Source: Escherichia coli
GTDB taxonomy: Bacteria > Pseudomonadota > Gammaproteobacteria > Enterobacterales > Enterobacteriaceae
Direction: 5' to 3' (one strand)
Assembly: GCF_036507355.1 (NCBI RefSeq)
Contig: NZ_AP027877.1
Length of the DNA: 64,000 nt
Below are positions 31,064 to 31,700 of the stretch, piece by piece. The position numbers were made by a program, and so were the translations under genes. How positions within the stretch are numbered: position 1 is the stretch's first letter; every line of letters starts with the position of its first letter. The notes beneath the pieces are model-generated. The model made no database searches, was not told where the DNA came from, and saw nothing but the letters and a program-made list of their open reading frames with translations.

Positions 31064-31700
31064 TCTTCTGAATCACCGGGCGACAAAATATAACTGAGTT
31101 ACAAATAAGTACCAGTCGAATGAGTATTGTATTAAGAATTTTTGAGTATCGCTGATACAACCAGAAAACAATGCTAGCGCAATATTATAGGGCCAGCAAT
31201 TGAGATTATTAGCAAAAGTATGTTAAGAATTAACCACCGAATTTATATATTAATTATAGTAAGGCAATGAGCTATTTTTGATAGTAAAAATAAAACAAGT
31301 TGATTTGATATATTAAATGAACAAATTAATCTTGATGGCAGTCTGATTATTGGTGAAGTTTATAGGTCAGTTTTTTTGCCAGCTGTTAAAGGAATAGAAC
31401 AGTCGTATAAAAAAGGGTGTGCAGAAGCGTGTAAAACAACATCTTCACCTTAATGGCGATACAGTTGGCTGAGAGTCAGCAGGGGGGGAAAATCACCTGT
31501 AAATAAACTCGGCGCATGCTGGCGCGAATATCGCGGATGCGTTCGAGGACAGAAGAACCGACAGGCGGATTCTTCAGCCGCTCATCGTCCATCACAAAAC
31601 CTTTGATCAGGTATTCCTGAAGCTGATTGAATATTGAGCAGTAGAAAATATCTGGCTTGACAGTATTACAAAGGATTGGAGAACGTCAGAAGAGGCATTT

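Follow-up and report, generated by a model that had tools for sequence, protein, structure and literature searches.

We analysed the 637 bp that separate selC from setC (positions 31064-31700) in a 64-kb stretch of Escherichia coli DNA, hereafter the window. The tRNA-Sec (UCA) gene selC occupies 31701-31795 on the minus strand (ARAGORN; Rfam RF01852, 83.8 bits). Its 95 nucleotides show no differences among K-12, O157, SF-088 and the 32 loci that we retrieved from species-representative genomes by an exact-match scan for this 95-nt gene. Downstream, selC is followed in the same orientation by setC (29879-31063, minus strand; ORF and Pfam MFS_1), which encodes a 394-aa MFS sugar-efflux paralogue of SetB. 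Beyond it lies yicL (28845-29768), and yicJ starts on the opposite side of selC. The 3' end of selC, at 31701, is the att core for selC-specific integrases, and this core continues for ~15 nt past the end of the tRNA (31686-31700, unstranded). The alignments show that the continuation is common to nearly all the structural variants of the locus that we examined and that it recurs at distal att sites, where it is included in the att-like repeats of SF-088, O157 and 2009C_3996.

The spacer has three parts: a 77-bp selC-proximal flank (31624-31700, unstranded) of a kind that we call type 1, a 174-bp fragment of a rhuM pseudogene on the minus strand (31450-31623; tblastn, Pfam and DNA alignment) and a 386-bp AT-rich region 5' of setC (31064-31449, unstranded; delimited by composition). 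The initial annotation had described the spacer as some 640 bp of AT-rich DNA before setC. The length agrees with our measurement, and the composition holds for the setC-proximal 386 bp (31.9% GC, with a minimum of 26% in 200-bp windows) but not for 31450-31700, where GC reaches 47%, similar to the 46% of setC. A search of 30900-32100 against Rfam at a permissive E-value returned tRNA-Sec and no other RNA family. No convincing terminator candidate was found 3' of selC (folding z-score of -0.08), and a scan for terminators and promoters gave one weak terminator-like and one promoter-like site, at or below the chance level.

The middle part of the spacer carries the trace of a protein. On the minus strand, a frame is open from 31685 to a stop codon at 31476-31478 and reads ...LQEYLIKGFVMDDERLKNPPVGSSVLERIRDIRASMRRVYLQV...; the portion of it that had been singled out from the sequence (31640..31480), which translates as ...NQLQEYLIKGFVMDDERLKNPPVGSSVLERIRDIRASMRRVYLQVIFPPC*, is indeed open. 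Residues 121-171 of intact RhuM align to positions 31622-31494 with an in-frame gap of eight residues (tblastn, E=8e-20). The peptide matches the PF13310 profile (Virulence_RhuM) with 49.9 bits (E=3.5e-13), above the gathering cut-off of 33.7, yet the match spans only profile positions 50-98 of 252, and no intact ORF with the complete domain is present. At the DNA level, alignment to the rhuM gene of SF-088 shows that the relic corresponds to nucleotides 360-557, i.e., to codons 120-186 of 345. It has lost 24 bp in frame (codons 146-153) and 8 bp near codon 172, where the frame is shifted; identities are 72/74 and 47/56 on the two sides of the 24-bp gap. The homology extends weakly to ~31450, an extension equalled in only 1 of 300 shuffles, and at its other end, near 31623, the 77-bp flank is joined straight to codon 120. 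With this level of similarity, far beyond chance, the open stretch is a true protein remnant. It had been taken for the tail of a protein; since both ends of RhuM are absent and 67 of the 345 codons survive, it is better described as an internal piece. We regard it as a pseudogene that makes no protein. A search of 29700-31800 for other protein remnants (the N- and C-termini of RhuM, a 122-aa hypothetical protein of SF-088) gave nothing better than E ~0.2, and no coding remnant was detected in 31064-31449.

RhuM is a predicted toxin or anti-phage defence family. A PADLOC search matched it to the candidate defence family PDC-S05 (E=3e-173), and it has been described as a predicted toxin domain in multi-layer defence loci with restriction-modification systems and PrrC (Anantharaman et al., PMC3710099). 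No NCBIfam model matches RhuM, and sequence searches found no relatives in the PDB.

Intact copies of the gene are found beside selC in other genomes. In SF-088, HS13-1, ATCC 11775 and ST131, a complete rhuM (345 aa, WP_001280586.1, virulence RhuM family protein) starts 52 bp downstream of selC. This arrangement, in which setC is absent, was found in 844 E. coli genomes and has the order selC, rhuM, a degenerate direct repeat (the selC 3' end and 12 nt of its flank), a small hypothetical ORF and yicL. The same repeat, with a 4-nt deletion, is found at positions 5256-5285 of the SF-088 locus (L003), where it stands distal to the intact rhuM, and at 13064-13093 of the N12 locus (L007), where a large island ends exactly at it and rhuM is missing. 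The N12 island carries genes for a retron-associated HNH protein, CbtA/YeeU and RadC. The bracketing of rhuM by selC and this repeat in SF-088 and its loss in N12 indicate that it acts as an att-bounded module in that lineage. rhuM is reportedly also near selC in SPI-3 of Salmonella, as Blanc-Potard and colleagues are said to have described in 1999.

The species-representative loci extend this picture. In E. albertii, selC is followed by ~180 bp of an arm like that of O157, by an integrase gene without codons 1-108 and by an intact rhuM (87% amino acid identity). In E. whittamii and Escherichia sp. E1V33, a type-1 flank precedes the ATG and only the first 14 codons of rhuM (MSDKRLTQSP...). The lengths of the matches to the type-1 flank are 82 bp in E. 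whittamii, 58 bp in E1V33 and 51 bp in O157. As the two former have this flank and then the start of rhuM, the 77 bp in the window are probably what survives of the ancestral DNA between selC and rhuM. Further away, rhuM is found whole or in part 213-517 bp downstream of selC, in the same direction, in Pantoea coffeiphila, two Erwinia genomes and Franconibacter helveticus. The relic thus sits in a position orthologous to that of the intact genes in SF-088, HS13-1 and ATCC 11775, as well as of the selC-linked ones in E. albertii, Pantoea and Erwinia, and the comparison with the other Escherichia shows that it descends from a rhuM that was once whole and lay directly beyond the selC 3' end.

Since selC is a classic integration site of genomic islands, we searched for the marks of one. 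We found no integrase homologue near selC or within the selC-yicL interval, in line with the initial annotation. The sole integrase match in the 64-kb window is a tyrosine-recombinase homologue at 57230-58432 on the minus strand (29% identity to the integrase of the O157 selC island, E=2e-35), which lies a long way from every tRNA gene of the window and probably marks another mobile element. There is no second copy of the selC 3' end anywhere in the window at up to 3 mismatches, and the best local alignment for a distal att repeat scores like shuffled controls, so that no attR was found in the window; the same search detected the repeats of its positive controls (SF-088, O157, N12 and 2009C_3996). 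The spacer therefore has neither the adjacent tyrosine integrase nor the distal repeat of the tRNA 3' end of a selC island, and with no distal repeat in the window, an island origin cannot be demonstrated from the window sequence alone. Just past nlpA, a block of low GC content (37%-40%, ~19000-28000) corresponds to the eip/eilA/iatC "selC-B" island, so that the earlier statement that large islands lie elsewhere in the window missed one close by. In matching genomes, its genes are annotated as a SipB/YopB-like translocon, an IpaD/SipD-like tip protein, the HilA-family regulator eilA and the inverse autotransporter iatC. This is the ETT2-associated eip island of enteroaggregative E. coli (EAEC) 042, covered to at least 80% in 719 of 5426 genomes; selC-A is absent from the window.

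Across E. coli, the interval between selC and yicL has at least three forms: the K-12 type (3618 genomes), the type with an intact rhuM and without setC (844 genomes) and island-bearing or deleted types such as O157. Within this variable interval, the K-12-type spacer behaves as fixed flanking DNA. The selC-proximal 51 bp of the spacer recur in O157:H7 in the integrase-proximal arm of the island, between selC and the integrase, and the 5-kb element of this integrase ends at an att repeat bearing a flank like that of SF-088. This repeat of the element itself lies at 3949-3986 of the O157:H7 TR01 locus (L004), with IS66 and the LEE (espF) beyond it, and the layout is consistent with the tandem accretion of elements at selC. 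In 2009C_3996, selC is followed by an island with a primase-helicase gene, and the whole K-12-type spacer has been displaced intact beyond it, ending in a classical attR in which 22 nt from the selC 3' end are repeated. The end of selC and the ~15 nt that follow are thus still a usable attB, and present-day islands treat the spacer as chromosomal flank.

Two further observations concern selC in other genomes. Five Kluyvera spp. loci (L025, L034, L036, L037 and L039) and locus L016 have a sequence resembling the 3' end of tRNA-Sec, TGGCGGAGATCGCAGGAGTCGAACCTGCC, ~480-530 bp upstream of selC; this sequence may represent either another tRNA-like gene or what is left of an att site. Two metagenome-assembled genomes (MAGs) assigned to Collinsella (L019) and Streptococcus (L040) have a selC that does not differ from the E. 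coli gene and an integrase 71%-97% identical to that of O157, and the latter additionally holds the start of yicJ. These are almost certainly enterobacterial contigs that were mis-binned into Gram-positive MAGs.

How rhuM came to lie beside selC admits two accounts. In the first, which bears on the origin of the gene only, rhuM was never the cargo of an island: it has been the chromosomal gene next to selC, just past attB, since ancient times, and islands repeatedly entered between the two and decayed. In P. coffeiphila, 213 bp separate the gene from selC, and transporters of housekeeping type come after it. Island debris is found between selC and rhuM in an Erwinia MAG (a DUF4942 fragment) and in E. 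albertii (the truncated integrase), and amino acid identities of 76%-87% fit vertical descent. However, rhuM is bracketed in SF-088 by selC and the degenerate repeat of its 3' end, the large island of N12 ends at that same repeat with rhuM gone, and Salmonella rhuM was counted within the variable selC-proximal end of SPI-3 (PMC3680342). On balance we think it somewhat unlikely, while taking it seriously, that rhuM was always a resident of the chromosome.

In the second account, the selC-proximal flank is the att arm of an element, and rhuM (PDC-S05) was the cargo of a minimal islet, flanked by att sites and devoid of integrase, on which the integrases of other selC islands acted in trans, moving, replacing or deleting it; the K-12-type spacer would then be the last stage of its decay. 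The flanks can be sorted into type 1 (K-12, O157 and E. whittamii) and type 2 (SF-088, E. albertii and the distal repeat of O157). Both are found as element-borne arms, which hints that the selC end of the spacer may itself derive from an element. We advance this account tentatively and consider it rather doubtful. If it were true, rhuM would belong to something like a cis-mobilisable defence islet, and selC would be a docking site conserved across Enterobacterales.

Whatever the origin of the gene, the spacer is common. We compared it by megablast with 5426 complete E. coli genomes and found at least 80% of it in one place in 3618 of them; the same test showed that it is not missing from most non-B2 E. 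coli. In K-12 MG1655 it is collinear (636 vs 637 bp) and 95.5% identical. The idea that the region holds a remnant of a former insertion therefore stands in so far as a gene of island type has left a fragment there, but the remnant is not peculiar to this genome: the same spacer is ordinary backbone in K-12 MG1655 and the other genomes that carry it. The relic is also already known. It is annotated in the megablast matches as an incomplete "rhuM: RhuM family protein", PGAP calls a rhuM pseudogene in K-12, and NC_000913.3 names the pseudogene yicT (b4653; 3836425-3836556, which maps to 31460-31592 of the window). A literature search on yicT found nothing relevant.

The sequence of the relic varies in ways that are typical of DNA free to change. 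The window, K-12, F9792 and 2009C_3996 have the same two junctions and the same 24-bp deletion, and because these are common to all, the deletion predates the divergence of K-12, F9792 and 2009C_3996. No reading frame is conserved: there are in-frame stops in K-12 and 2009C_3996, the frame is open in the window and in F9792, and a poly-C tract, whose length varies with the strain, shifts the frame downstream. The three parts of the spacer diverge between the window and K-12 by 4.0%-6.5%, vs 1.2%-1.5% for setC, yicL and yicJ and 0%-0.3% for the yicL-setC and selC-yicJ intergenic regions. These stops, frameshifts and raised divergence form a pattern of neutral decay, in which the relic is unconstrained. 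They also bear on whether the surviving frame (39 aa when read from the GTG at 31595 as far as the stop at 31476, or the whole 69-codon stretch) encodes a functional small protein derived from RhuM. The frame is open in two strains and the MG1655 record gives the locus a gene name, albeit with a pseudogene flag. Against this, such a product would cover less than a fifth of the family profile, its frame is broken in other strains, the region has diverged at about three times the rate of the genes around it, and both annotation sources treat it as a pseudogene, so that a functional peptide is highly improbable. That the spacer is a recent scar of this strain alone, left by a selC island that was excised or deleted with its integrase, might be suggested by the integration site, by a remnant of island type and by the 51 bp shared with the integrase-proximal arm of O157, but the conserved collinear architecture, the shared deletion and junctions and the lack of any remaining att repeat refute it for practical purposes.

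The AT-rich part of the spacer is tied to setC, which has a history of its own. The gene is present in 3718 of the 5426 E. coli genomes, is absent from the SF-088 type and survives in O157 and O145 only as its last 253 bp. In E. albertii, an orthologue with ~90% amino acid identity also lies beside yicL; after it, SetB paralogues come closest (72%-73%). The E. coli and E. albertii loci cease to be homologous 13 bp upstream of the start codon of setC; the upstream sequence of E. albertii is likewise rich in AT (33% GC) and has an IS1 inserted in it. At the DNA level, the two species (29886-31076 of the window vs L041-L043) are 79% identical in setC and 83% in yicL. The genome-wide identity of E. 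coli and E. albertii should be higher than these values, in which case the neighbourhood of setC and yicL evolves fast or has exchanged alleles. setC is absent from E1V33 and from the 402 bp downstream of selC that are available for E. whittamii. In its place, both have a convergent ORF of 404 aa with a weak CxxCxxCC match (PF03692; positions 3200-4414 of locus L018 in E1V33, and locus L020 in E. whittamii), which is a third occupant of the selC-yicL hotspot. The patchy distribution of setC, present in E. coli and E. albertii and missing from the SF-088 type, E1V33 and this stretch of E. whittamii, requires several gains or losses under any scenario, and the direction of change is unrooted. 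setC, commonly termed backbone, is thus inside a variable interval that turns over.

Taken together, these results lead us to conclude, with a probability of about 0.9, that the spacer is a non-functional and slowly decaying piece of backbone, inherited by most E. coli including K-12, rather than a fresh scar. The intact rhuM genes of 844 E. coli genomes, E. albertii, Pantoea and Erwinia are what make the relic an old and fixed product of decay and not of recent excision. The Escherichia ancestor would have had an intact rhuM that began ~50-120 bp beyond selC and shared its orientation. In the lineage of the K-12 type, one deletion would have removed ~40 bp of the intergenic region together with codons 1-119, another all that followed from about codon 187, any distal att repeat included, and the small deletions of 24 and 8 bp would have followed inside what was left. 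This would have left 77 bp of the initial selC flank and a dead rhuM of 174 bp (yicT); the remaining 386 bp are the upstream region of setC. The selC 3' end with its ~15 nt has stayed a usable attB, where modern islands enter and push the spacer to their far end. We infer the order of these deletions; rhuM may originally have been island cargo.

On its own, the remnant carries little weight, as yicT is an annotated rhuM pseudogene and the AT-rich part is a catalogued promoter island. It does imply that the "empty" selC of the K-12 type is not pristine, since it holds a fossil of RhuM whose gene is intact in ST131, ATCC 11775, genomes of the SF-088 type and E. albertii. This is relevant to the use of the selC-setC junction as a PCR marker of an unoccupied site and to the definition of the boundaries of selC islands. 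A mildly novel thread, which we offer as a speculative possibility, is that the empty K-12 site is the fossil of an att-flanked defence islet that recurs at selC.

The spacer can finally be set against the systems that it resembles. Its AT-rich part is orthologous to a "promoter island" listed between selC and setC in K-12 (3834632_331, 331 bp; Panyukov and Ozoline 2013, PMC3661553), which maps to 31077-31407 of the window, and the segment is 94.8% identical to K-12. Like the K-12 region, it is AT-rich and lies upstream of a gene predicted to be foreign. Every ChIP data set shows H-NS bound to the K-12 island (PMC3661553), and this AT-rich region is expected to be transcriptionally silenced; genomic SELEX placed RpoS and RpoH holoenzyme sites in the K-12 spacer (PMC5493296), with peaks that map to ~31183 and ~31085, respectively. 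H-NS binding and promoter density were established in K-12, whereas our simple consensus scan shows no enrichment (one sigma-70 site vs 2.6 expected), the published criterion for promoter islands being PlatProm, a different algorithm. By analogy with K-12, H-NS may silence the segment in this strain as well. The relic itself is closest to K-12 yicT, its orthologue at the same position between selC and setC with the same deletion and junctions (96% identical), which differs in the length of the poly-C tract and in reading LV*GF where the window has LIKGF. With rhuM of the SF-088 type, it shares the PF13310 family, the position next to selC and the orientation, with ~92% DNA identity over the aligned blocks. 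Salmonella rhuM in SPI-3 has the same family assignment and reportedly lies downstream of selC in the same orientation. Unlike both genes, the relic keeps just 67 of 345 codons and so has no product. Lastly, the LEE with a 933L-like element in O157:H7, selC-A in EAEC 042, PAI-I536 and SPI-3 all use the same attachment site. Unlike these selC-linked islands, which are variable and carry an integrase, a distal repeat and cargo, the spacer has none of the three and is fixed in most E. coli.
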